DNA of 64,000 nt from a phage: assembly GCA_022901335.1 (NCBI GenBank), contig GCA_022901335.1_3641.1; one strand, given 5' to 3'. The translations under genes and the position numbers were made by a program. Below are positions 9,087 through 54,124 of this stretch, one piece after another; the stretch's first letter is position 1, and the number at the start of each line of letters is the position of its first letter. The notes under the pieces were generated by a model. It had not been told where the DNA came from. It saw only the letters and a list, made by a program, of their open reading frames with translations, and did not search any database.

Positions 9087-9638
9087 ATGATCAGAGCGCC
9101 ATTAGATAATTTATTTCTTGAAAAGCTGGAGCTTGATGGTGTTGAGATCTTAATTGCTGCAAAGCTGGAGCTACCGACAGGAACTGTCAGGGTGTGCTCA
9201 GGCACTGGTGTTGTAGTAATTGAGGGGCAACATTTTATAGGGATAGGGGGATCAGCAACATTAACTGCTGTGTCTGAGAAAGATGCCACCAACTTCGGAT
9301 CTGTGGTAGCAACATTGAACGGGTTTGATCCTAAGTATGTGGGTGATCTGCTGAAGACGGAGTATTCTGGTTGTCGTGCCACGTTGTACATTACCGCTAT
9401 GGAGAATGGTCTACCTGTCACAACTAATGGCTTGTTTGACGGCCTTATAACAGATATGGCTATTCAGACAGGTGAGAATAGTGCTTTGTCCATATCCATC
9501 TCTTCCATCTTCAACAGTTGGTTAAGAGGTTTTCCTTATCGGTACACGGAGGAAAGCCACAGCTCAAGAAACGATAATGACAGATTTTTTAAATATGTGG
9601 ATCAGGTGGCGAGCCGCCCGATCATTTGGGAGGTTTAA
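9087..9638 (+). CDS. tail assembly/minor tail protein
   Basis: ATG at 9087 after RBS GAGG (track start 9072 is TTG); stop overlaps next start (TAATG). Confidence 0.45.
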   Translation: MIRAPLDNLFLEKLELDGVEILIAAKLELPTGTVRVCSGTGVVVIEGQHFIGIGGSATLTAVSEKDATNFGSVVATLNGFDPKYVGDLLKTEYSGCRATLYITAMENGLPVTTNGLFDGLITDMAIQTGENSALSISISSIFNSWLRGFPYRYTEESHSSRNDNDRFFKYVDQVASRPIIWEV

Positions 9639-10063
9639 TGAGCACACACCCTCGTTTAGTGGATTGGCAAGAAAGATTGTGGAAAGTGTTTGACGAAGAG
9701 GCCACCATACCTTTTGAATGGGGATTCCACGATTGTTGCACCTTTGCGGCTAAGTGTGTTGATGCCCAATACGGAACAGATTTTCTTTCCAACTTCGAAG
9801 GAACGTATAAAACAGAGTTGGAAAGCAAAAGATGGTGCATGCTTCGTTTCAAAACTACACACCTGCCTACTATTTTTGATCTCTTTATGACTCGGCTGGA
9901 TACTCCTAAACAGGTTCAGCGTGGAGATATTGTCATTTTCGAAGGTCTGAACGGCCTCACCGCTGGTGTGTTCTGGAACAACCAGATTTTGGCGAAAGGT
10001 GATAAAGGGGTCTTTATGTTCGATATGAAAGATTCTATCGTTGTTGATGTCTGGAGGTATTAA
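9638..10063 (+). CDS. tail-associated protein, possible Cys-His (NlpC/P60-like) peptidase
   Basis: ATG 9638 overlaps upstream stop; FEWGFHDCCTF Cys motif; sits where gpK/gpI-like genes precede gpJ. Confidence 0.4.
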   Translation: MSTHPRLVDWQERLWKVFDEEATIPFEWGFHDCCTFAAKCVDAQYGTDFLSNFEGTYKTELESKRWCMLRFKTTHLPTIFDLFMTRLDTPKQVQRGDIVIFEGLNGLTAGVFWNNQILAKGDKGVFMFDMKDSIVVDVWRY

Positions 10064-19691: not shown

Positions 19692-20006
19692 GTGGAGTTG
19701 GATTTGGCGGCATTGTACGGTATCTGTATGGGTACCGTTGTCCCGATCTGTGTATGGGCTTTCAACCAGTGGCACACCAAATGGAAAGGCATTTCCCAGA
19801 GGTTGGATGAACTGGAGAAAGACCTCATCTTAGTGAAAAACAGTATGGTTACAAAAGATAGACTTGATTCCGTTATCGAGACCCGGTTAAGCAAGCTAGA
19901 GGCAGATATTAACGACCTTAAGCAGGATGTTAGGACAGATGTTTCCGGTATCCGAGCTGATGTACAAAAGATCTTGCACATGCTTGTAGAGCATAGTAAA
20001 AGGTAA
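19692..20006 (+). CDS. small membrane protein with coiled-coil, possible holin-like
   Basis: GTG start with RBS GAGGAGG; one hydrophobic helix then coiled-coil; directly after Tfa as holin t follows gene 38 in T4. Confidence 0.35.
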   Translation: MELDLAALYGICMGTVVPICVWAFNQWHTKWKGISQRLDELEKDLILVKNSMVTKDRLDSVIETRLSKLEADINDLKQDVRTDVSGIRADVQKILHMLVEHSKR

Positions 20007-21148: not shown

Positions 21149-21415
21149 ATGAAATTAACTCAGTTTTTATGGGGACTGGTTGCAGCATCTGATGACCCTA
21201 CAAAAGTGTCCCAATCTAAGCTATGGTCAAACATAGGCATGGCAGTGATGACTGGGGTTTTTATTCATATGGGGTACAATGATACGCTTCCTGAATGGTA
21301 TGCGTGGATATACGCACCTTCAGTAGCCTGCCCCCAGCTTATTAGCAAATTCATCTCGCTCCGGTGGGGTTGCCAGCACCCTGACCACGTTAAAAACGAA
21401 GAGCAAAAAGCTTAA
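21149..21415 (+). CDS. small membrane protein
   Basis: RBS AGAGGG; hydrophobic helix SNIGMAVMTGVFIHMGY. Confidence 0.4.
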   Translation: MKLTQFLWGLVAASDDPTKVSQSKLWSNIGMAVMTGVFIHMGYNDTLPEWYAWIYAPSVACPQLISKFISLRWGCQHPDHVKNEEQKA

Positions 21416-35924: not shown

Positions 35925-35953
35925 TTGACTTTACTCTAACTCCACAATATAGT
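35925..35953 (+). promoter_or_regulatory. sigma70-like promoter TTGACT-N17-TATAGT in divergent intergenic region
   Basis: near-consensus hexamers 40 bp upstream of the 35994 ATG, 10 bp from the minus-strand gene start. Confidence 0.55.
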
Positions 35954-39685: not shown

Positions 39686-40066
39686 ATGGCTAAAGTAGGT
39701 AAGCGGGGAAACTACCTGGTGGTATTGACCGAGGAGCCGGAGAAGGAGTACGAATGCAGCTCCACTTGCGTGATCGATATCCGAGAAAAAGATGTAGATG
39801 AAATCTGGTTTAAAATATTGGACGCTTGCGATAGCAGTGATTATTTCTTCATCTATGTCAACGATAAGGCTGGGTTCTTCCATGACGACGGAGAGTTGCC
39901 GTATGAAATCTATGAACTTGTAGAGGCTTGCCATCGTGGAGATGCGGAGTTGTTTGGCTTACGGCTGAAAAGCGGTAAATTCTTCTATCAAGATGAGTGC
40001 ATGAATCTTCATAACTTTGTAGAGGGAACTTGCAACGATGGAGAGATTTTGGCACACTACGATTAA
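39686..40066 (+). CDS. hypothetical protein
   Basis: 126 aa, RBS AAGGAGG. Confidence 0.5.
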   Translation: MAKVGKRGNYLVVLTEEPEKEYECSSTCVIDIREKDVDEIWFKILDACDSSDYFFIYVNDKAGFFHDDGELPYEIYELVEACHRGDAELFGLRLKSGKFFYQDECMNLHNFVEGTCNDGEILAHYD

Positions 40067-40078
40067 TTTCTAATACCA

Positions 40079-40105
40079 CCCCGCTTCGGCGGGGATTTTC
40101 TATTT
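40079..40105 (+). terminator. rho-independent terminator (CCCCGC-TTCG-GCGGGG + T-rich)
   Basis: same hairpin as at 13672, followed by ATTTTCTATTT. Confidence 0.55.
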
Positions 40106-40114
40106 GGAGTTATT

Positions 40115-40615
40115 GTGAAAATTAAGATCTTTGCTATTATTTTGAGCGCATTTTTATCGCTGCCTGTTGTTGCAGCACCAAAACAAAAAGTATATCATAC
40201 TTGCAAGCCCTCAGATACTAAGGAAAACATTTTGGCATGTAATATCTACAGGGAAGCTAGAGGGGATGGCACGATGGGTATGCTGGCATCTGGGTTTGCC
40301 ACATTAAACAGGAAATCTCACCCTAAATACCCAGACACTATAAGAAAGATTGTCTACCAACCTAACCAGTTTTCGTGGACAAACCACGGCAAAACTTTTA
40401 AGGTGACAGAAAAAGATTCATGGGATCACGCTAAAAGTCTTGCAAAGATGCTTCTAAAGGTCTATAATAACAACCATGTTGCATACATGGCTATGGATAT
40501 AACAGGTGGAGCAACACACTACCATACAACCAAAGTACGACCGAAATGGGCAAAAAAGATGCAGAGGACAGCTCAATTCGGGAGCCATATCTACTACAAG
40601 GAGCGCAATAAATGA
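40115..40615 (+). CDS. secreted cell-wall hydrolase, SleB/CwlJ-like (Hydrolase_2 family)
   Basis: GTG start with RBS GGAG; signal peptide MKIKIFAIILSAFLSLPVVAAP; ILACNIYREARGDG...ATLNRKS...VYQPNQFSW. Confidence 0.6.
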   Translation: MKIKIFAIILSAFLSLPVVAAPKQKVYHTCKPSDTKENILACNIYREARGDGTMGMLASGFATLNRKSHPKYPDTIRKIVYQPNQFSWTNHGKTFKVTEKDSWDHAKSLAKMLLKVYNNNHVAYMAMDITGGATHYHTTKVRPKWAKKMQRTAQFGSHIYYKERNK

Positions 40616-42594
40616 TTGTAAACAGTAATGAAACTAAAGCAGTGCTAACCGGAAATATGGAGGTCACCAGGGGCTCAATTTCTCTTAACAAAGAGACTTT
40701 TGGGCTAATCATTAAAGGGATTTACGAAGATAAGGTGCTGGCAAGCTGCCGTGAACCAATCTTCAATGCTGTGGACTCTCATGTTGAGTCTGGACGGGGT
40801 GATGTGCCGATCATTATTCACTCTCCTACAGACCTTGAACCATACTTCTTTGTGCAGGACGTTGGATTGGGCATGTCAGAAGAGATGGTCCGCAACACTT
40901 TCATGAACCTCGGTGAGTCAACCAAGCGCAACAGCAACGCTCTGGTTGGCAATAAAGGTGTTGGTTCAAAGGCTCCGTTCAGCATGGTGGACACTTTCGA
41001 TGTTATCAGTGTGCACAATGGTATTGAAAGCACATATCTATTGTTCTTGGATCAGGGTATCCCAAACGTTACCAAGATCCGCGAGCGGAAGACTGAAGAG
41101 CACAACGGGGTAAAAGTTCAGTTCCATGTTAAGAAAGAGCATGTCCTGAAATATCGCACTGCTATTGCATCGTGCTTACGCTATGCGAAGTTTCCGTTCA
41201 TCGTCACCGATCCCATGACCAGTAAGATGTTAGAAGGTGACAAGGTTGAGGCACAGTATCATTACGAGAAGGATGGCTGGAAAATGACCATCCTGAAAGG
41301 TTATACCAGTTCTGATGAGAGCCGTGTTGTGATGGGTCACCAACCTTACCGCTCCAAGTTCCTGGAGACATTGACCGATTACCCTGCAATCTGCGTGGAA
41401 ATTCCTATTGGGGATTGCAATATTAACCCTGGGCGTGAATGGACCATAGAGGGCCATGACGACGGTGGATTCCAGGATCGCCTGGAGGCATTTGTCAAAG
41501 AAGGTATACGTCTTCGCGGGGCAGAAGTTGTTGCAGAACTGGAGACGGCAAAAACCTCCGCAGAAGCACGTGAAATGATGAAGAATAGTGGAGTGTTCGG
41601 ACACATCTTCGGCAAGAACTTTATGTGGAACCGTTGGGAAGAAACAGGGCTTGGCGACTTAGGCGATTGTGAAATTTTCGCTGGCGGCTTAAATAAAGGC
41701 CGCATAGACTATGCTCGTTACGGAAAGTCGGAGTTCTTACGAGGTGTATACCTTGTATTTAACGACGGAGACGGCAAATATAACCGGAATAAGTGTAACT
41801 ACTTAAGCGAGATCACCGGACGCAACGTTTTCTATTGCCGGAACACGGATCTGGTGAAAGAGTTTAAAGAGGCGGCACACCATCCTTTCTTTGCAGATAC
41901 GGTCAAATTGTTATCGGAGCTTCCACGCCGACCTGCGAAGAAAGGTGAAACCAAAACTCGTTACAAGCCAGGCTACTGGGTTAAGAAGCTTAGAGAGGAT
42001 GGCTACTTCCATCGTGAGCGCCTCACGAAGGCAGAGTTCAAGAAGATTAAGCATTGCATCCCTTATGAGGGGGATATCCAACGGGGAAGCTGCTGGCTGG
42101 GCCAGATGAGTAACATCTACCAGCAAAATTATGACCGTGTGCGTGCTGCACTCCAGATTCCTGAAGGTGAAGATCTGTACCTGGTATCAGAATCTCGTCT
42201 GCTTTGGACTGATCCTGATTGCCAGTATGTTACAGAGAAGAATGTGGAACATTTGTTGAAAGAGGATGCTTGGAAATTCTTACTGACTCGCGCAGCAAAT
42301 GAAACTTCATATGACAGCCTGTATAGACAATTAGGGAAAATTATCCCCATGCAGGATTTTGGAAATTATCGGCCACATTTCCACAAGTGGGAAGGTAACA
42401 CCGCGTGGAAGCACAGTGAGCTAAATCATCGTGCCAAAATCTTAATCGCCAACCGGGTTAAGTGCGGGAAGGCCTATATTGCAAGATTGGAAAAGAAATA
42501 TCCACTTTTGAAGCATGTGGGCTTGAAATATTGGGACACTCCTGCTATGATTGAATACCGTGAACTGATCGATACAAAGAATAACATCAAATAA
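40612..42594 (+). CDS. rIIA: rIIA-like protein (GHKL ATPase fold)
   Basis: N box REPIFNAVDS, G1 VQDVGLGMS, G2 VGNKGVGSKAPFSMVDTFDVISVHNG align with T4 rIIA N-terminus. Confidence 0.75.
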   Translation: MIVNSNETKAVLTGNMEVTRGSISLNKETFGLIIKGIYEDKVLASCREPIFNAVDSHVESGRGDVPIIIHSPTDLEPYFFVQDVGLGMSEEMVRNTFMNLGESTKRNSNALVGNKGVGSKAPFSMVDTFDVISVHNGIESTYLLFLDQGIPNVTKIRERKTEEHNGVKVQFHVKKEHVLKYRTAIASCLRYAKFPFIVTDPMTSKMLEGDKVEAQYHYEKDGWKMTILKGYTSSDESRVVMGHQPYRSKFLETLTDYPAICVEIPIGDCNINPGREWTIEGHDDGGFQDRLEAFVKEGIRLRGAEVVAELETAKTSAEAREMMKNSGVFGHIFGKNFMWNRWEETGLGDLGDCEIFAGGLNKGRIDYARYGKSEFLRGVYLVFNDGDGKYNRNKCNYLSEITGRNVFYCRNTDLVKEFKEAAHHPFFADTVKLLSELPRRPAKKGETKTRYKPGYWVKKLREDGYFHRERLTKAEFKKIKHCIPYEGDIQRGSCWLGQMSNIYQQNYDRVRAALQIPEGEDLYLVSESRLLWTDPDCQYVTEKNVEHLLKEDAWKFLLTRAANETSYDSLYRQLGKIIPMQDFGNYRPHFHKWEGNTAWKHSELNHRAKILIANRVKCGKAYIARLEKKYPLLKHVGLKYWDTPAMIEYRELIDTKNNIK

Positions 42595-42604
42595 GGAGAC
42601 CAAG

Positions 42605-43810
42605 ATGATTTTCATCTACGAACATTTCAAAACCCGTAAAGAAGCACGAGACCGCCGTGCAGAACTTGAGAAGAAGGGTTTCACATGTGCCATTGAGAAA
42701 GGCGACACAACCTGGACACTGGCAGTTGGTGCCCCAGAGTTGTTCGATCCTGACCGTGACAGCGTCTGCTACACCCGTGAGGATTTTGAAACCCGCGAAG
42801 AGGCCCGTTTATTTCGATACGGTCTGGAAGATAACGGTAAGTACGCTATGATCTTAGATTTAGGCGAAGGTTCCGTTAAACGTTGGGGCGTGGTATACCC
42901 ACTGTGTGTTGTTCACGGTGTGGGGTTCACTGGGGTAGCAATCAAGTCAGAAGAACCTTTAGTAGAAGTCAAAGATCCGGTGCTGGAGGTGGTGAGCAGT
43001 GTGTCTCAGCAACAGACTCGAAGCATCGAGCCTTTGGTAGTTATTTGTGGTGAACTCCTCCAGATCACCTGCAACGAAGGCATTTTTGAAATTCGCCGCA
43101 GCGAAAGTGAGGAAGTTTACCAGAAAGTCTTCGACCATATCTCTGTTCAGGAATATGATGAGGCAATTGGTGAAATCCTTGTCTGGCTGGAACGCAAGAA
43201 TGAGTTCACCACACTTGCAGACAACCTGATCATGAAAGATGGTAAGCTCTACTACTACGGTGTAGAGATGCGATCCACCATTGCAAAGAAAATTGAGAAA
43301 GATTATGCAGACGGAACGCTGGATGACCGCTATGTGAAATTCCTCGTTCGCCTGCTACGCAATCCTTCTGCAAAATCTGTAAACATGCTCTACGATTTTA
43401 TGCAGGCCAACGATATCCAGATTGCAGAAGATGGTCGAATCATTTGCTACAAAGGGGTTCAGTTTAACGGCAGCAAGTGGGTGGATTGGCACAGTGGTAA
43501 AGTTCCACAATACCAGGGTGCTTTTGTATCCATGCCTCGTAACTTTGTAGAGGATGATCCGGAAGCTGCGTGCTCCTATGGCTTACACTGCGCCAGCAAA
43601 GAGTATGCAAAGAGCTACGGCACTGTAATGACTGTTATGGTTGATCCTGCAGATGTGGTTAGTGTGCCATACCAACACAATAGCGCTAAGTGCCGTGCAT
43701 GCCGCTATGAGATTGTGGTAGCTCCGGAAGCACGCAAAGATGGAGACCCTATTGAATATGTAGTTGATCGTGACGGTAACACTATCGACATTCTTTACGA
43801 GGAGGCGTAA
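42605..43810 (+). CDS. rIIB: rIIB-like protein
   Basis: C-terminal LYDFMQANDIQIAEDG...SYGLHCASKEY...VMVDPADVVSVPY...CRACRYEIV parallels T4 rIIB; adjacent to rIIA. Confidence 0.7.
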   Translation: MIFIYEHFKTRKEARDRRAELEKKGFTCAIEKGDTTWTLAVGAPELFDPDRDSVCYTREDFETREEARLFRYGLEDNGKYAMILDLGEGSVKRWGVVYPLCVVHGVGFTGVAIKSEEPLVEVKDPVLEVVSSVSQQQTRSIEPLVVICGELLQITCNEGIFEIRRSESEEVYQKVFDHISVQEYDEAIGEILVWLERKNEFTTLADNLIMKDGKLYYYGVEMRSTIAKKIEKDYADGTLDDRYVKFLVRLLRNPSAKSVNMLYDFMQANDIQIAEDGRIICYKGVQFNGSKWVDWHSGKVPQYQGAFVSMPRNFVEDDPEAACSYGLHCASKEYAKSYGTVMTVMVDPADVVSVPYQHNSAKCRACRYEIVVAPEARKDGDPIEYVVDRDGNTIDILYEEA

Positions 43811-45180
43811 TGGAAAAAGGGCAGTATGATGTAGGCACAGATGCTGCCCTCGTTGCAATCATGAGCGGTGAGAATGTCTTCGTTTCAGGACCCGCAGGTT
43901 GTGGGAAGACGTACCTCATCAACATGATCCAGTCAATGTATGGAGACTCTTGCATAACGGTTGCCCCGACAGGGGTAGCCGCTTTAAACGTTAATGGAGC
44001 AACAGCACACCGAACCTTCGATCTTGCAGCAGGTGTGAGCATGGAGTCAGACTGGACCGCAATAAGGGCAAAAACAGCAAAGCCTTTGAAAAGCAAGGCA
44101 TTTACCATCCTAATTATCGATGAAATCTCTATGATCCGTGCTGATAAGTTTATAGAGATGGATAGGAAACTCCGCTTCCTTCGAAAAAATGACAAACCTT
44201 TCGGAGGCATACAGGTCATATTGTTTGGCGATTTTTACCAGGCACCTCCTGTTGTCTCTTCTATGGAGAAGGAAGCCTACTTCAACTTCTACCATACGGA
44301 CCTGTGTTGCTACACCGAATCTTGGAAAGAACTTGACCTCCACAACATAGCTCTAATAGATCAGTTCCGACAGGAGTCTATTCGATTTGCCACAATGCTC
44401 AACTGTGTTCGTGAGGGTCGTCGCATAAAAGAGGTTGTAGCAGAACTTAATGCTCGCTGTTACAAAGGCGGTGTACCAACAGACGCTCTCACAATTTGCG
44501 CCACCAACAAACAAGCGGAGGAAGTGAACAGAAGGTTCTATGATGCCATCAACGCCCCAGAGAAGGTATACACTGGTGAAATGAAAGGTAAGTTTCCCTC
44601 CACCCTGCCAGTTGAGCAGGAGATGAAGTTGAAAATTGGCATGAAGGTTATGATAACCGCCAACGATGTTGACCCGACGCACAAAGTACCTTATTATGTT
44701 AACGGAACACGTGCCACGATTGTTAAATTTAAGAACAAGGCGGTGGTGGTGGAGCTTGAAGATGGAACACAGGTTGACATAGAGCAAAGGTTGTGGGAGA
44801 ATAACGAGTATAAGCCATCTCAAAGATACAACATTGCAGAAAGGAAGATGGAGAAGTTTATAGAGAGGGTAGTGATTGGATCATACAGGCAACTTCCTCT
44901 GAAATCTGGGTACGCCGTAACATCTCATAAAAGTCAAGGACTTACGCTAGATTGTTACAACCTGGACCTTGGAAAGAACGGAGCTTTCTCTCCTGGGATG
45001 ACGTATGTTGCTTTGAGTCGAGTTAAGACAATACAAGGAATAAACTTGTTGCGTCCACTAAGAGAAGTTGACATTATTGTTGACCCGCGAGTCGTAGAGT
45101 TTTACAATACAACATTCCCTGACTTAGACAAAATTGTCAGGAAAGATTTTGAAACCAGAGCAGAAGAGGGGGACGTATGA
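43810..45180 (+). CDS. Dda/Pif1-like SF1 DNA helicase
   Basis: Walker A SGPAGCGKTY, motif Ia TVAPTGVAA, motif II LIIDEISM, GDFYQAPPV, motif VI TSHKSQGLTLD. Confidence 0.75.
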   Translation: MEKGQYDVGTDAALVAIMSGENVFVSGPAGCGKTYLINMIQSMYGDSCITVAPTGVAALNVNGATAHRTFDLAAGVSMESDWTAIRAKTAKPLKSKAFTILIIDEISMIRADKFIEMDRKLRFLRKNDKPFGGIQVILFGDFYQAPPVVSSMEKEAYFNFYHTDLCCYTESWKELDLHNIALIDQFRQESIRFATMLNCVREGRRIKEVVAELNARCYKGGVPTDALTICATNKQAEEVNRRFYDAINAPEKVYTGEMKGKFPSTLPVEQEMKLKIGMKVMITANDVDPTHKVPYYVNGTRATIVKFKNKAVVVELEDGTQVDIEQRLWENNEYKPSQRYNIAERKMEKFIERVVIGSYRQLPLKSGYAVTSHKSQGLTLDCYNLDLGKNGAFSPGMTYVALSRVKTIQGINLLRPLREVDIIVDPRVVEFYNTTFPDLDKIVRKDFETRAEEGDV

Positions 45181-46822: not shown

Positions 46823-47587
46823 TTGAAATTTATCTACAAAGAACACTACCACAAAGGTGTTGTGTGGAGTCTGTTTGACGGGTCTGGTGGTGCAGTCATT
46901 GACTGGGCAAAAGCTGGGTACCTGTGCCTGTGCTTTAATGCAGAAGGTGCTGATCACGGCAGTTATGCAGAGGTGATAACCGATCATCCCAACATTCACT
47001 ATGTGGATTATTGGATTGACCCATGGTTCCCTCAGGAAACTTTTTGCATGTACCCAGCTCCAGACTTTATTCTTGCATTTCCTCCGTGCACGCATTTAGC
47101 GGTATCAGGTGCTGCACATTTTAAGAAAAAGCTGGCTAAGGATCCTTTGATCCAAATTAATGCTGTAAAGGATGCTCGGGTTGCGGAAGAACTGGGAGAG
47201 ATTTACGATTGCCCGTGGCATGTAGAGAATCCTGTTGGTGTTATGTCCACACTGTGGCGCAAACCTGATTACCGTTTTCATCCTTCTGACTATGGCGGGT
47301 ATTTACCGGAGGATGATGTAAACCCCTGGTTTCCTGAATTTATAGCTCCACGTGATGCCTATCCAAAAATAACTTGCGGCTGGATAGGTAATGGATTTAT
47401 AATCCCGGCCACAAAACCTGTCCCGCAAATAGTTGACGCGGTTAGCGGGTATTCCATGCAACACGCCAAGCTGGGCGGAAAGAGTGCAAGAACGAAGATG
47501 ATCCGAAGCCTCACACCACGTGGCTGGGCAAAAGCCGTATTCTTAGCAAACGAGCCTGCAGTAAGGAGAAGGGCAAATGGTTGTTGA
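46823..47587 (+). CDS. short C5-cytosine-methyltransferase-like protein
   Basis: TTG start after RBS AGGAGA; motif I-like LFDGSGG, PC motif FPPC, ENV-like ENPVG; lacks a recognisable target-recognition domain. Confidence 0.4.
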   Translation: MKFIYKEHYHKGVVWSLFDGSGGAVIDWAKAGYLCLCFNAEGADHGSYAEVITDHPNIHYVDYWIDPWFPQETFCMYPAPDFILAFPPCTHLAVSGAAHFKKKLAKDPLIQINAVKDARVAEELGEIYDCPWHVENPVGVMSTLWRKPDYRFHPSDYGGYLPEDDVNPWFPEFIAPRDAYPKITCGWIGNGFIIPATKPVPQIVDAVSGYSMQHAKLGGKSARTKMIRSLTPRGWAKAVFLANEPAVRRRANGC

Positions 47588-48251
47588 CTGGAGCAAGTAT
47601 TTCACCTATAGCGACGGCAAACTGTTCTGGGCGTATACCGCAAAAGCCGGAAGGGGTAGGATCATACATTACGCAGGTGAGGAGGCCACAGGCACAGATA
47701 AAGATGGCTATAGAGTAATAAATGTGTCAGGTGTTGGAAGTGTTCGTAGGCACAGAATAATTTGGGAGATGCATTACGGAGAGATACCTGAAGGTCTTGT
47801 TGTTCGGCACAAGAACGACATAGCAGGGGACGACAGGATAGAGAACCTAATCCTGGGGACACAAGGTGATAATGCACGAGACATGATCTACAGTGACAAG
47901 CTAAACATTAACAATACCTCAGGGTATCGTGGCGTGCGCTATCATAGAGGTATAAAAAGATGGACTGCATCTGCTGGAGACATATACTTAGGGTGTTTTA
48001 AGACAAAAGAGGATGCAATTGCATGCAGAAAGTTATGGGAGAAAGGAAAATTCGTCCCGCAAGAATTAGATGTTAGAAACACTAGCGGTGTAACAGGGGT
48101 GTTCTATGTGCCGAGCTCTGGAAGGTGGAGAGTCCGAGTGCAAAGCGGCAAAAAGAGAAAGAGCTATGGCACTTACAACACTTTAGAAGAAGCAAAAGCT
48201 GTAAGGGATAAGGTGATGAAAGAGATTGAGGAGTTTAAAGATGGGGAATAA
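47577..48251 (+). CDS. HNH homing endonuclease with two AP2 DNA-binding domains
   Basis: HNH_3 motif HRIIWEMHYGEIPEGLVVRHKNDIAGDDRIENLILGTQGDN; AP2-like SGYRGVRYH...W and SGVTGVFY...GRWRVRV...YGTYNTLEEA. Confidence 0.7.
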   Translation: MVVDWSKYFTYSDGKLFWAYTAKAGRGRIIHYAGEEATGTDKDGYRVINVSGVGSVRRHRIIWEMHYGEIPEGLVVRHKNDIAGDDRIENLILGTQGDNARDMIYSDKLNINNTSGYRGVRYHRGIKRWTASAGDIYLGCFKTKEDAIACRKLWEKGKFVPQELDVRNTSGVTGVFYVPSSGRWRVRVQSGKKRKSYGTYNTLEEAKAVRDKVMKEIEEFKDGE

Positions 48252-50377: not shown

Positions 50378-53300
50378 ATGAGCATGTGGTCTTTCGATTT
50401 TGAGTCATCCGGTTTGCTGGAAGACCCAGATCTTTATTATCACTGCGGCCTGTTTAAAGAGTTGAATAAGAACCGTTTTATGCTGTTCCTTCCTCTGAAT
50501 GACCGCACACACTACTCCGAGGAGGATATAGAGAAGGCTAAGAACTTTATTCTGGCAAAGAAAACTCTTTATAAGGATTTTGAAGTTCGCATAGCAGATT
50601 TTTCAGAGTTGGAAGGTTGGCTTACAGGCAATTCTGACTGGTCACCCACAGCTTTGAACTGCCACAACTGCTACAGCTACGACTTTATGCTGATGGAGAG
50701 ATTGTCCGGTATTCATTTTGATATGTTCCGTGATCCTAAGTGCATGGGGACTATCAACGACCACCAAGTTAATCTGTTTGATACGTTGGCGATGAGCCGA
50801 ATCTTGTGGCCTGATCGCCCTTTACCAAAAGGTTGTCCGGACTCTGTATTCAACCCGGTTACTAAGAAAATGCAGCCTGTTGGTCCTCACGGCCTTATGG
50901 CATGGGGCTACGCCCTTGGTAACCAGAAAGTTCAAATTGATGACTGGCGCGATCTTCCGTTGTGGAAGTATGTGGATCGTGTATTCGAGGACGTTATCAT
51001 CCAGGAGCTGCTCTGGAAAGAGCTGGTAGCGGAATCAAAAGGTGTATTCTACGGCAAATCTGACATGCAGAACTTTATGTACGATCCAGCCAAAGAGAAG
51101 CCGAAAGGGTTCAAGAAGATCACCTGGAAGAACGCATTACGTCGAGGAATGCTGCAGCACTTCCTGATGGAGCTGCAGGCCCGTCAGGGTGTATACTTCG
51201 ACATAGATGGGGCTATTGCTTTACGTGACCGTTGCGATGCGTGGATGAAAGAAATCGCTGATCGTGTTGAACCACAACTGCCTTTAAAAGAGCTGTCAAT
51301 GTCTCAGCGGCCCAAGTTCCCTGAAAAGCCGTTTAACCAAGACGGGACAATCTCTAATAATGGTTGGAAATGGTTAAAAGATAAGCTTGGCTATCCTGTA
51401 GACATGAGTGCTTTAGAGTTCAAAGCCCCGCCTAAGCGAGCATTTACCTCTACAGGAGATGTCAGTAAGATGGGGATAAAATGGTGTGAAGAGATGGGCT
51501 GCAAAGACCCCGATAAGATGGCTGATTTCTTGAGAGGCTATATTAAGGGCACCTCCACACCACAACCTTTACCTAAAGAGCTAATGGATCAGGCAATAAG
51601 TGATCTACAGCAGAAGCGAATGCCGGACTGCAAGATACCTATGAAAATCAGCAACCAGGACGACATTAAGCGATACCTGATCAGTGCTGGTTGGCTTCCA
51701 ACAATGTGGAGAACTAAGGATGTAACTAAAGACAGCAAGAAGAAAGCTCTACCTGATGCAGATGTTGATGCACGAGTATATGCATATATGGACGAGCTTT
51801 TAGAGTCAGAGTATTGTGACCTGATTATCAACTTCTGGAACAAAACTGATGCTAAGTTCCAGACAACCGTGCACAAGTTCCGAAGCTTTCCTAACTCCGA
51901 AAGGATTAAAAAGGAAGTATTCGGGAAAATACGTAGAAAAGCTAGGGCACTTATTACTTCTCCGCAACTGAAAGATACGTTTGGACACCTATGCCCTAAT
52001 CTTGAAAAATTGAACGGAGAGATGGCTAAAGATATCGTCTTGTGGTTATCATTGCGAAACCGCAGATCGGTCCTTGATCCAATCAAGGAGGATAAGGTTG
52101 ATACTGGTCTTCTTAATCACCCACGTTTGAAGATTGACCATAAGCTTCCTGCTAAAAGTTCTGGATTAACAAACACTTCCCGACAGAAACACAGTATTTG
52201 TGCAAACATGCCTAAACCATCTCCTAAAGTGGTTATGGGTAAAGAGATGCGTAGTCTGTGGGGTGTTCCTCCAGGATACTTTGAGATCGGTATTGACGGG
52301 TCCAACTTAGAGCAGCTTATCGGGGCTTGGGGTGCCTTTGAGTTCGACAACGGCCTGTATTACGATGTTGTAAGTAATGGCGATGCACACTGTTATTCAG
52401 GAGATACACAAATTCTCACGGAGAAAGGGTGGGTGAGGTTTGAAGATCTTGATCCGGGAACACAAGTGTTCCAGTACGATCACAGCACCTCGTCAATGAA
52501 CCTTGTTACTCCATTAAATTACGTTAAGCGTAGTTATTATGGGGATATGTATCATTTCCACAACAGTAGTGTGGATTTTATGGTTACAGATCAACACCGG
52601 ATGCTGACTGTGGATCACAGAAGCAATAAATTGTTTGAAGATTTGGCAAAAGACCTGAAAGCAGGTAAAGGGTCTAATTCAGGAAGAAGGTTTATCCATG
52701 CGGCAGAGTTTTATGGGAATACAGCCTTATCTCCTGCCCAGGTTAATTTGCTTATTGCTATTCACGATGATGGGCACTTGCATACAAATAAGGACGGCAG
52801 CATCGTGTGCAGGATTCAGGTCGGAAAGGGAAGAAAAGTTGCAACGCTTTTAGATACTTTTTCTGCTCTAAGCCTTAGTTATGTAGAGCAGAGCGGGAAA
52901 ACCACAAAAGGAGGCTTACTGGCGAGAAGGTTCCAATTCCACGTTCCGTCCTGGGTATTTGAGTTTTTGGACAGCAATAAGGATTTCACCTACAACCTGA
53001 TGAACCTTGATAAAGAATCTAAAAACCTGTTTATAGCTTCTTTATCTAACTGGGACGGGTGGGTATCTTCCGAAGGTGGAAAGGTTGCTTACTACTCTCA
53101 GGCCGAGTGCAGGAAGAAATCTGTAGAGGTGGTGTCTGCGCTGGCTACTCAGTGTGGTTTACGGAATAATACGGTGGCGATTCACAAAAAAGGTCGTGCC
53201 GTGCAGCACAGAATCACAATTGGTAGCAAACAAAGAGCAGGGTTGCTGACACTATCTAAAGAGTCTGTCGAGGTGAGCGGTTCTTTGGTTTATTGCGTTA

Positions 53301-54124
53301 CCGTCCCTTCTGGAGCAATCATTGTGAGAAGGAATGGTAAAGTGGCAGTGTGCGGTAACTGTAATAACGCCAAAGCTTACTCTTCTGTAGCAGGCAAGGA
53401 GATTTCCCGTAACGACGGTAAACCTATCACGTATGGGGTTATGTACGGGGCACAAAAAGATAAAGTTGCAGATATGCTGGACATCTCTCCAGAGTTGGGA
53501 CAAAGGGTAATCGATGCGCTTTGGGATGCCAACCCTGGTCTTAAGGGCCGTAAAGAGGATCTGGAGAAATTCTGGGAAGCAACGGGTAAGAAGTTTATCT
53601 ACTCTTTTGATGGTCATGCCATCTGGACCCGATCTAAACACTCTTTACTTAATGCATACCAACAGAATGGTGGTGCATCGCTGTGTGACTTGGTTGGGAT
53701 ACTTATGCACCACCAAATGGTGAAGCGTGGGTGGTACGATGAAGGTGTTCGTCGTATTATCTATTACCATGACGAATATCAGCTTCAAGTACCTGACACA
53801 CCGAAGTATAAGACTGTGTACACCTTCGACACAATTGAAGAATTGGAAGCATTTAAGGCAGAGCAGGAGGCCAAACTTCATGTGTTCGACGGTCATAAGT
53901 ACAAAAAGGCACGCAAGGATGAAAACGGAAACGAAGTGGTTGACAGAGACGGAAACACGGTGTACGATCCTATCCTGAACGATGACGGAAAGCTTGAACT
54001 TATCTGGAGTCCTGTGGGCGAAATGGTGGTACATTGCTTCTGGCAAGCTTCTAAAATGATGGGAGTCCCGTTCCAGATCACAGGTGAATACTTGTGTGGT
54101 CGTAATTGGGGTGATTGTCACTAA
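50378..54124 (+). CDS. family A (T7-like) DNA polymerase with intein insertion
   Basis: Exo I FDFESSGL; motif A IGIDGSNLEQL; motif B RNDGKPITYGVMYG; motif C YYHDEYQLQV; about 323 aa inserted between A and B. Confidence 0.85.
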   Translation: MSMWSFDFESSGLLEDPDLYYHCGLFKELNKNRFMLFLPLNDRTHYSEEDIEKAKNFILAKKTLYKDFEVRIADFSELEGWLTGNSDWSPTALNCHNCYSYDFMLMERLSGIHFDMFRDPKCMGTINDHQVNLFDTLAMSRILWPDRPLPKGCPDSVFNPVTKKMQPVGPHGLMAWGYALGNQKVQIDDWRDLPLWKYVDRVFEDVIIQELLWKELVAESKGVFYGKSDMQNFMYDPAKEKPKGFKKITWKNALRRGMLQHFLMELQARQGVYFDIDGAIALRDRCDAWMKEIADRVEPQLPLKELSMSQRPKFPEKPFNQDGTISNNGWKWLKDKLGYPVDMSALEFKAPPKRAFTSTGDVSKMGIKWCEEMGCKDPDKMADFLRGYIKGTSTPQPLPKELMDQAISDLQQKRMPDCKIPMKISNQDDIKRYLISAGWLPTMWRTKDVTKDSKKKALPDADVDARVYAYMDELLESEYCDLIINFWNKTDAKFQTTVHKFRSFPNSERIKKEVFGKIRRKARALITSPQLKDTFGHLCPNLEKLNGEMAKDIVLWLSLRNRRSVLDPIKEDKVDTGLLNHPRLKIDHKLPAKSSGLTNTSRQKHSICANMPKPSPKVVMGKEMRSLWGVPPGYFEIGIDGSNLEQLIGAWGAFEFDNGLYYDVVSNGDAHCYSGDTQILTEKGWVRFEDLDPGTQVFQYDHSTSSMNLVTPLNYVKRSYYGDMYHFHNSSVDFMVTDQHRMLTVDHRSNKLFEDLAKDLKAGKGSNSGRRFIHAAEFYGNTALSPAQVNLLIAIHDDGHLHTNKDGSIVCRIQVGKGRKVATLLDTFSALSLSYVEQSGKTTKGGLLARRFQFHVPSWVFEFLDSNKDFTYNLMNLDKESKNLFIASLSNWDGWVSSEGGKVAYYSQAECRKKSVEVVSALATQCGLRNNTVAIHKKGRAVQHRITIGSKQRAGLLTLSKESVEVSGSLVYCVTVPSGAIIVRRNGKVAVCGNCNNAKAYSSVAGKEISRNDGKPITYGVMYGAQKDKVADMLDISPELGQRVIDALWDANPGLKGRKEDLEKFWEATGKKFIYSFDGHAIWTRSKHSLLNAYQQNGGASLCDLVGILMHHQMVKRGWYDEGVRRIIYYHDEYQLQVPDTPKYKTVYTFDTIEELEAFKAEQEAKLHVFDGHKYKKARKDENGNEVVDRDGNTVYDPILNDDGKLELIWSPVGEMVVHCFWQASKMMGVPFQITGEYLCGRNWGDCH
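52391..53359 (+). mobile_element. intein with LAGLIDADG homing-endonuclease domain inside the DNA polymerase gene
   Basis: block A CYSGDTQILTEKGWV after extein GDAH; block B TDQH; LAGLIDADG-like LLIAIHDDGHL and FIASLSNWDGW; ends VAVCGN before +1 Cys. Confidence 0.65.

Follow-up and report, generated by a model that had tools for sequence, protein, structure and literature searches.

Several described systems lie close to the exported cell wall hydrolase considered here, including bacterial germination enzymes, host murein hydrolases, and phage endolysins with or without an export signal. SleB and CwlJ of Bacillus, represented by the structures 4FET and 4F55, are germination-specific lytic transglycosylases that have the same Pfam family, fold, and position of the catalytic glutamate as the phage protein, although the latter is only 24% identical to SleB, is phage-encoded, and would act in a Gram-negative periplasm. 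The host's own periplasmic lytic transglycosylases, Slt70 and MltA-E, would share its compartment and type of reaction, but they are housekeeping enzymes with different folds, and no sequence relationship between them and the hydrolase was detected. The Mlt transglycosylases are lipoproteins, an arrangement mimicked by a subgroup of the phage homologues that carries a lipobox.

Phage endolysins reach the murein by distinct routes. Lambda R, gp89 of phage rV5, and LysECP26, which are GH104 enzymes, have predicted lytic transglycosylase chemistry and the type of phage genome in common with the hydrolase, but they possess an unrelated fold and lack a signal sequence, and are hence holin-dependent. 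Compared with such canonical endolysins, the hydrolase likewise has a muralytic domain, but it has an export signal and shows neither a late promoter motif nor linkage to lysis genes. SAR endolysins, such as P1 Lyz and R of phage 21, resemble it more closely in their Sec export without a holin and their periplasmic location before lysis, which is also predicted for the hydrolase; their SAR domains, however, are uncleaved, rich in Gly and Ala, and regulate a T4-lysozyme-like fold, which differs from that of the hydrolase. Lys44 of the Oenococcus phage fOg44 reportedly carries an N-terminal cleavable Sec signal and is exported independently of a holin. In contrast to the hydrolase, which is a second enzyme encoded in a non-late block outside any lysis cassette, Lys44 is the endolysin of its phage, shares its lysis cassette with a holin gene, and serves a phage of a Gram-positive host.

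The nearest relatives are orthologues, namely rV5 gp2, bas59_0064, CB7_83, and CR3_087. In 2013, rV5 gp2 was annotated as 'cell wall hydrolase, 166 aa, pI 10.0, Hydrolase_2', beside gp1 rIIA. For CB7_83, the Certrevirus orthologue, a 2020 paper reported a signal peptide, conservation of the hydrolase across all Vequintavirinae genera, and toxicity upon expression in E. coli, the last as 'data not shown'. This unpublished observation of toxicity is the sole functional hint in the literature.

The window, meaning the whole 64,000-nucleotide stretch of phage DNA that was analysed, belongs to Vequintavirus and is 93-99% identical to rV5-like E. coli myophages, corresponding to approximately 17.7-80.3 kb of phage Bas59 EduardKellenberger. 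Its hydrolase is 99% identical in amino acids to the rV5-like cluster and is not materially different from rV5 gp2, which also has 166 aa and a pI of 10, lies upstream of rIIA, and is preceded by the terminator t003. It is therefore a known and already annotated gene, another member of a widespread phage family. The reading frame begins with GTG, and a GGAG or AGGAG motif precedes the start codon in 10/10 homologues. Minus-strand open reading frames that overlap the gene are all short and antisense. The features of the locus are collected in Table 1.

Table 1. Features of the hydrolase locus and its surroundings, in window positions.
Feature	Position	Strand	Remarks
Sigma-70-like promoter	35925..35953	+	TTGACT-17-TATAGT; 10/12 consensus match; identical to rV5 P010 (Table S4)
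Intrinsic-terminator-like hairpin	40079..40105	+	CCCCGC-TTCG-GCGGGG then ATTTTCTATTT; 6 GC pairs; 3' end 9 nt upstream of the GTG
Shine-Dalgarno GGAG	40106..40109	+	5 nt 5' of the GTG start; read from the sequence
CDS, exported SleB-type cell wall hydrolase (export predicted)	40115..40615	+	166 aa; rV5 gp2 / bas59_0064 orthologue; precursor 19.05 kDa, pI 10.0
Signal peptide, residues 1-20 (MKIKIFAIILSAFLSLPVVA)	40115..40174	+	predicted signal peptidase I cut A20|A21
Mature enzyme (predicted), residues 21-166	40175..40612	+	16.9 kDa, pI 9.95
Cys30 (40202-40204) and Cys42 (40238-40240)	40202..40240	+	sole two cysteines; adjoin the catalytic helix
Glu47, predicted catalytic glutamate, codon GAA	40253..40255	+	aligned to the YGESRG glutamate of SleB 4f55
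Hydrolase_2 domain, residues 51-161	40265-40597	+	
rIIA homologue (HATPase_c_3)	40612..42594	+	ATG overlaps the hydrolase stop codon as ATGA
rIIB homologue	42605..43810	+	
Pif1/RecD-like helicase, after rIIB	43810..45180		

The assignment to the SleB type, already made in the initial annotation from short sequence signatures, is borne out by profile, fold, and active site. The translated frame scores 70.4 bits with Pfam Hydrolase_2 (PF07486), for which the curated cutoff is 27 (E=2.1e-19; match spanning positions 2-100 of the 100-position profile), and it also matches PHROG 938, which bears the name 'endolysin' (E=1.7e-27). When the PDB was searched by sequence, only SleB catalytic domains were matched (4f55, E=2.5e-6, and 4fet). 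An AlphaFold model resting on 120 homologues reached a mean pLDDT of 90.6, with residues 1-20 as the sole poorly defined part (pLDDT 49-60). Foldseek comparison of this model with the PDB again returned 4fet and 4f55 as the only significant matches (E 1e-5 to 3e-5, probability 1.0, target-normalised TM 0.74-0.79, with 0.79 for 4fet), while the comparison with viral models returned dozens of matches named 'cell wall hydrolase SleB'. Hydrolase_2 is the single Pfam match, and the N-terminal peptidoglycan-binding domain of SleB was not found in the protein, residues 21-50 of which are modelled as a short linker, a strand, and a helix. Because that N-terminal domain is missing, the hydrolase has a SleB-type catalytic domain without being a SleB orthologue.

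The transglycosylase activity of SleB requires its catalytic glutamate (PMC12331253), and the aligned Glu47 is conserved in 120/120 homologues, so that the hydrolase is predicted to cleave murein through this residue. The two cysteines beside the catalytic helix form a candidate periplasmic disulfide, as suggested by their co-occurrence: Cys30 is present in 38/40 homologues that have Cys42, and the number of cysteines in the mature part is even in 15/15 sequences of a smaller set. Among the distinct homologues of the larger set, 86 contain two cysteines, 30 contain three, three contain four, and one contains five. Overall, the protein can be described with high confidence as a single-domain lytic transglycosylase of the SleB/Hydrolase_2 type, orthologous to rV5 gp2, with a Sec signal on its precursor.

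The signal itself, which the initial annotation had described as cleavable, is tripartite: MKIK, with a charge of +2, is followed by a hydrophobic core of 13-16 residues and then by P17-V-V-A20|A21-P22. The A20|A21 site satisfies the -3/-1 rule. Signal peptidase I disfavours Pro at +1, and a cut after A21 is therefore unlikely, since Pro22 would occupy that position. Aligned relatives retain small-x-small sites at the matching position despite their diverged sequences (VLA|K, AMA|T, ATA|L, and VVA|Q), and a basic, hydrophobic, and small-x-small N-terminus occurs in 115/120 homologues, with a lipobox in 4 more. An explicit rule set of sequence features, run on all 215 open reading frames of at least 60 aa in the window, selected only the hydrolase and one out-of-frame reading frame, and thus singled out the hydrolase among the real genes. 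Sec export and cleavage at A20|A21 are accordingly the predicted fate of the precursor.

The gene is located among fucosyltransferase, MoxR ATPase, gp3, hydrolase, rIIA, rIIB, helicase, primase, and DNA polymerase genes, in this order, and the flanking non-late rII and replication genes agree with its earlier placement in an early or replication block. The ATGA overlap implies that the hydrolase and rIIA would be co-transcribed, and the two may possibly be translationally coupled as well. Among the lineages compared, rIIA and rIIB lie 3' of the hydrolase only in Vequintavirus and Henunavirus. Glycosyltransferases, helicase, RNA ligase, and genes of that sort are found next to it in VivaForever, ETEC-TG, Mendera, CR9, PAK_P4, the T5-likes, and two metagenomic relatives. 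The neighbourhood conserved outside Vequintavirus and Henunavirus consists of an RNA ligase on the 5' side, with early genes such as a Pif1 helicase on the 3' side. In all lineages compared, the homologues sit among early or replication-type genes. Adjacency to the rII genes was considered as a conserved functional link and rejected, since the neighbours differ in most relatives. The acidic gp3 (39686..40066), which the rV5 table lists as a T5.083 homologue, was likewise rejected as a conserved inhibitor or chaperone partner; neither blastp nor tblastn matched it in the upstream genes or loci of nine other lineages. An Rfam scan of 38-43 kb detected no RNA family.

Signals of transcription and translation point to restrained, non-late expression. 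The rightward unit begins at a divergent promoter region near 35.9 kb, where the sigma-70-like promoter likely starts a rightward non-late unit that contains the hydrolase, and the rV5 authors describe genes 10-1-238... as forming one transcription unit. The motif defined for late promoters in rV5 has 18 matches in the window against 5.9 expected, clustered in the structural module, and zero matches between 35.7 and 46.1 kb. Directly upstream of the hydrolase, the hairpin ranks first among terminators across 11 kb; the rV5 authors predicted the identical element as t003, with a dG of -16 kcal/mol. A hairpin occupies the equivalent position in 8/10 lineages examined, and the scanner found a strict terminator 5' of the PAK_P4 homologue too. 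In Phapecoctavirus and Sugarlandvirus, the hairpin is followed by a sigma-70-like site with an extended -10. In the window, no sigma-70-like site was found between the terminator and the hydrolase start codon, and the rV5 authors list no promoter for gene 2. Additionally, GTG or TTG start codons occur in 5/10 homologues, compared with 10.5% of Bas59 genes (P about 0.01 for 4/9 lineages, which are only partly independent). The upstream terminator-like hairpin and the weak start codon therefore suggest low-dose expression, and the pattern as a whole suggests a separately controlled, low-dose, non-late gene. The literature search found no transcriptomics for any Vequintavirus or for any homologue of the hydrolase.

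Canonical lysis genes lie elsewhere in the rV5-like genomes. In Bas59, a 159-aa protein encoded near DNA ligase is a full-length lambda R homologue (PDB 1am7, E=6e-31) and matches PHROG 90. The corresponding rV5 gene, gp89, was called 'an obvious lysin' by the rV5 authors, who do not mention gp2 under lysis, and the LL12 authors list one endolysin plus spanins, with the gp2 homologue not among the lysis genes. An orthologue of this endolysin, LysECP26, lysed 29/29 Gram-negative strains tested when purified. The endolysin is present in about 99 rV5-like records and lies near DNA ligase and homing endonucleases; it is mosaic, with three diverged alleles at 67-100% identity, whereas the hydrolase retains at least 95% identity in 116 records. 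The lysis genes of these phages are dispersed, with spanins beside terminase, the endolysin near DNA ligase, and a holin candidate in yet another place, and no GH104 endolysin, holin candidate, or spanin was found in the window. Judging from relatives that are 93-99% identical, this phage presumably encodes a lambda-R-type (GH104) endolysin as well.

The presence of two enzymes extends beyond the rV5-like phages. Alongside the SleB-like enzyme, Certrevirus carries an M15-type peptidase or lysozyme-like enzyme, Septuagintavirus an M15C peptidase, Phapecoctavirus a GH24 lysozyme, and Menderavirus an N-acetylmuramidase. T5-like phages carry a SleB-like homologue and, as their canonical endolysin, a separate Lys peptidase. 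The exported SleB-like enzyme is thus paired with a genus-variable canonical endolysin in six lineages, Vequintavirus included. For phage Marzo, the CPT annotators left the SleB-like gene out of their endolysin count. The CR3 genome announcement, as cited elsewhere, implicates the homologue in lysis, probably through annotation only.

Since its relatives encode a separate canonical endolysin, the hydrolase is not the endolysin of this phage, or not the sole one; it is an additional enzyme rather than the principal endolysin. The initial annotation had raised the possibility of a Sec-exported endolysin in a phage with dispersed lysis genes. Dispersal of the lysis genes holds, while the identification as endolysin does not, since the relatives carry a lambda-R-type endolysin; a separate canonical endolysin elsewhere in the genome, the observation that the initial annotation had named as decisive against its proposal, is found in relatives 93-99% identical to the window.

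Neither a holin nor a spanin adjoins the hydrolase in the window, in agreement with the earlier remark that no canonical holin is adjacent. Two reading frames of the fibre module had been offered as holin-like candidates, and neither matches a lysis family: the product of 19692..20006, which has a single N-terminal TMD and a coiled coil, matches phrog_5345, of unknown function, and that of 21149..21415 matches phrog_1322 ('membrane protein'). The small multi-TMD reading frames of the window are all antisense within larger genes. In other genera, a small membrane protein does accompany the hydrolase. A class-II-holin candidate with two TMDs overlaps the hydrolase gene in Certrevirus, and a 77-aa 2-TMD protein lies between hydrolase and rIIA in Henunavirus. 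The Henunavirus protein resembles the Certrevirus candidate, and the occurrence of such a holin-like gene beside the hydrolase in both genera is suggestive with regard to a helper function in lysis. Searching both the window and the complete Bas59 genome for a homologue of these proteins by tblastn gave no significant match (best E=0.088), and a relocated small 2-TMD holin in the rV5-like genome was rejected on this ground.

Taken together, we propose that the hydrolase is an exported accessory transglycosylase of the periplasm, neither a virion component nor the principal endolysin, which helps in lysis; as a whole, this explanation is on balance probable, though far from secure. The gene would be transcribed with the non-late rII and replication block and not from a late promoter, and its dose would probably be kept low by the terminator 9 nt upstream together with the GTG start. 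Sec would export the precursor to the periplasm, signal peptidase I would cleave it behind Ala20, and the basic mature enzyme of 16.9 kDa would probably fold with a Cys30-Cys42 disulfide and cleave host murein using Glu47. Stationed in the periplasm in advance, this accessory murein hydrolase might be tolerated as long as the envelope stays energised and murein is still being synthesised. The role of principal endolysin would fall to the lambda-R-type (GH104) enzyme, which is cytoplasmic, depends on a holin, and is encoded at another site in the genome. After the holin fires, the hydrolase would speed the destruction of the sacculus by this canonical endolysin or act as a back-up.

The steps of this proposal differ in strength. 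The helper or back-up role, to which we attach moderate confidence, is the weakest step of the mechanism and only one among several roles with which the data agree. SleB of Bacillus is specific for cortex that contains muramic-delta-lactam, and this modification is absent from E. coli murein; because of its absence, activity of the hydrolase on the host sacculus is an assumption. Furthermore, the export of an active transglycosylase before lysis carries a risk of premature lysis, which speaks against the explanation.

Alternatively, the hydrolase could be a genuine Sec-exported endolysin resembling Lys44 of fOg44, which would build up in the periplasm until membrane depolarisation by a holin or pinholin activates it, and which would be either the main lytic enzyme or fully redundant with the GH104 protein. 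Its muralytic fold, intact active site, and export signal would suit such a function, the name 'endolysin' is used by PHROG 938 and several GenBank records, and expression of an orthologue is reportedly toxic to E. coli. The class-II-holin-like gene with two TMDs that overlaps or follows the hydrolase in Certrevirus and Henunavirus points in the same direction, as does the adjacency to rIIA and rIIB, which are tied to lysis control in T4. However, many relatives lack the rII adjacency, and both a late promoter motif and a holin partner are absent in Vequintavirus. Moreover, essentially all rV5-like genomes encode a lambda-R-type endolysin of experimentally demonstrated lytic activity, and five further lineages pair the hydrolase with a canonical endolysin. 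The judgement of annotators also runs against this alternative, given that both the rV5 and the LL12 authors assign the role of lysin to the GH104 gene and leave gp2 out of the lysis genes, and that the Marzo annotators excluded the homologue from the endolysins. We therefore consider a role as genuine endolysin unlikely.

A second alternative, which we also hold to be doubtful, is a non-lytic remodelling of periplasmic murein before lysis, with little or no contribution to the final lysis. Such remodelling could, for example, loosen the sacculus for cell enlargement, change the wall with consequences for superinfecting phages or for host structures anchored in it, or release anhydromuropeptides. 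It would account for the early or replication-type placement in more than six lineages, away from the lysis genes, for the co-existence of a complete canonical lysis set, and for the signs of dose limitation, and it is in keeping with a hydrolase far more conserved (at least 95% in 116 records) than the mosaic endolysin. The reported toxicity, on the other hand, indicates a capacity to damage cells, and the literature search found no precedent for a role of this kind. With respect to the proposed lysis-helper step, non-lytic remodelling fits the data about as well.

It is very unlikely that the N-terminal segment remains uncleaved and, in the manner of a SAR or signal-anchored endolysin, tethers an inactive enzyme to the inner membrane until depolarisation. 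SAR domains do solve the problem of holin-free export without premature lysis, and Pro22 excludes the A21|P22 cut and leaves A20|A21 as the sole remaining site. Nevertheless, the hydrophobic core is short, strongly hydrophobic, and without Gly, with a Gly/Ala/Ser/Thr fraction of 0.33, whereas the reference SAR domains of P1 Lyz and R21 score 0.55-0.65. Small-x-small cleavage motifs are kept at the aligned position in relatives, AlphaFold leaves residues 1-20 unpacked against the domain, and a large subgroup of relatives has a lipobox, which is a cleaved signal.

Finally, a virion-associated lysin that breaches the wall at DNA injection, to which the occurrence of Hydrolase_2 domains in virion or polyvalent proteins of very large size in other phages might point, is highly improbable, because the hydrolase is small and stand-alone with a Sec signal, its gene lies outside the structural module, the baseplate has its own spike and gp25-like components, and the portion of the rV5 virion mass-spectrometry table that the analysis covered contains 0/6 tryptic peptides of the hydrolase, a modest piece of evidence given that the table may be truncated. 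The export signal, the non-structural block, and, within that portion of the table, the absence of gp2 peptides are consistent with the virion-independent hydrolase that had been considered at the outset.

The accessory periplasmic transglycosylase that we favour has consequences for how these genomes are read. In rV5-like phages, the label 'endolysin', which many GenBank records and PHROG 938 attach to the hydrolase, is misleading, since the lytic endolysin is the lambda-R-type protein, and the two enzymes should be kept apart both in enzybiotic mining and in the mapping of lysis cassettes in rV5-like genomes. The pairing of a conserved, exported, non-late SleB-type enzyme with a variable endolysin is seen in Vequintavirinae, Phapecoctavirus, Menderavirus, and T5-like phages, and it poses the small question of why large virulent phages retain an exported second murein enzyme among their non-late genes. 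Speculatively, and with only a modest chance of being right, small SleB-type transglycosylases with an export signal may make up an as yet unrecognised functional class of pre-lysis murein enzymes, encoded in non-late blocks across at least six lineages of large virulent Gram-negative phages and always together with a separate canonical endolysin; secreted at a deliberately low dose, as the terminator and weak start codons may indicate, they would prime or remodel the sacculus during infection rather than execute lysis.

In 8 of the 10 phage lineages, the start codon of the gene for the exported Hydrolase_2 protein is directly preceded by a GC-rich hairpin, in many cases bearing a T-run, and GTG or TTG serves as the start codon in half of the homologues (5/10), compared with a non-ATG background of 10.5% in Bas59, the rV5-like relative. 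Taken together, the hairpin and the weak starts look like a conserved limitation on the dose of a toxic exported enzyme.

Features of the window, of the Bas59 record (L003) and of other loci carrying hydrolase homologues (L004-L007, L010-L013)
Feature	Record	Position	Strand	Remark
Baseplate-module gene	window	9626-10063	+	bas59_0029 in Bas59, annotated there as "cell wall hydrolase protein"
ORF, 104 aa	window	19692-20006	+	between tail-fibre chaperone and short tail fibre gene
ORF, 88 aa	window	21149-21415	+	fibre module; phrog_1322 match
Hairpin upstream of hydrolase	window	40079-40117		equivalents in L004, L005, L006, L007, L010, L011, L012
Homing endonuclease gene, HNH_3 + AP2	window	47577-48251	+	free-standing; insertion at about 47568-48244
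DNA polymerase ORF	window	50378-54124	+	insertion at about 52390-53387
Canonical lambda-R-type endolysin	Bas59	120248-120727 (L003:20248-20727)		outside window
77-aa protein, two TMDs	Erwinia phage Hena1	L005:4511-4744		between hydrolase and rIIA
Hydrolase family member with lipobox-like signal	L013	6001-6465

Proteins of about 155 aa form a large subgroup of the hydrolase family (about 75 proteins, alignment A3); they carry a lipobox-like ...LLLSTAS-C(D/E)H signal with Asp or Glu at +2, which suggests lipoprotein versions retained at the inner membrane. Their genes lie on phage-like contigs, surrounded by small genes of early type. In Hena1, the two-TMD gene is placed in the same way as is CB7_82, the class-II-holin candidate, in Certrevirus; its product had no PHROG match, and no homologue was detectable in rV5-like genomes.

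Two ORFs of the fibre module had been called holin-like in the initial annotation. For the 104-aa ORF, which combines one N-terminal TMD with a coiled-coil-like C-terminal part, no evidence for this call was found. It matches phrog_5345, of unknown function, and had no Pfam hit. The 88-aa ORF matches a PHROG described as "membrane protein" in the moron/host-takeover category, with no Pfam match and no TMD over the threshold used. The baseplate-module gene matches only Pfam DUF6950 and a PHROG of unknown function; its muralytic label, which may go too far, is attributable to a remote gp25-like similarity published for its homologue in Certrevirus.

The homing endonuclease gene, flanked by the cytosine methyltransferase on one side and the primase/helicase on the other, is missing in Bas59. 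The DNA polymerase ORF is uninterrupted and longer than in Bas59 (1248 aa, against about 925 aa); the extra sequence, about 1 kb and in frame, may represent an intein or else a mobile element inserted in frame. An intron in the DNA polymerase gene has been described by the LL12 authors.

Between 16 and 23 records, GenBank MG065659 and MG065677 among them, carry the name "Campylobacter phage" with C. jejuni as host; they share 98-99% identity with E. coli rV5-like phages over the region compared, and are probably mislabelled or contaminant assemblies.

Among rV5-like phages the canonical endolysin has three diverged alleles, with identities of 100%, about 72% and about 67%, and homing endonuclease genes flank it, whereas the exported Hydrolase_2 protein retains at least 95% identity across 116 records. 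This difference suggests that cassette exchange has affected the canonical endolysin and not the hydrolase.
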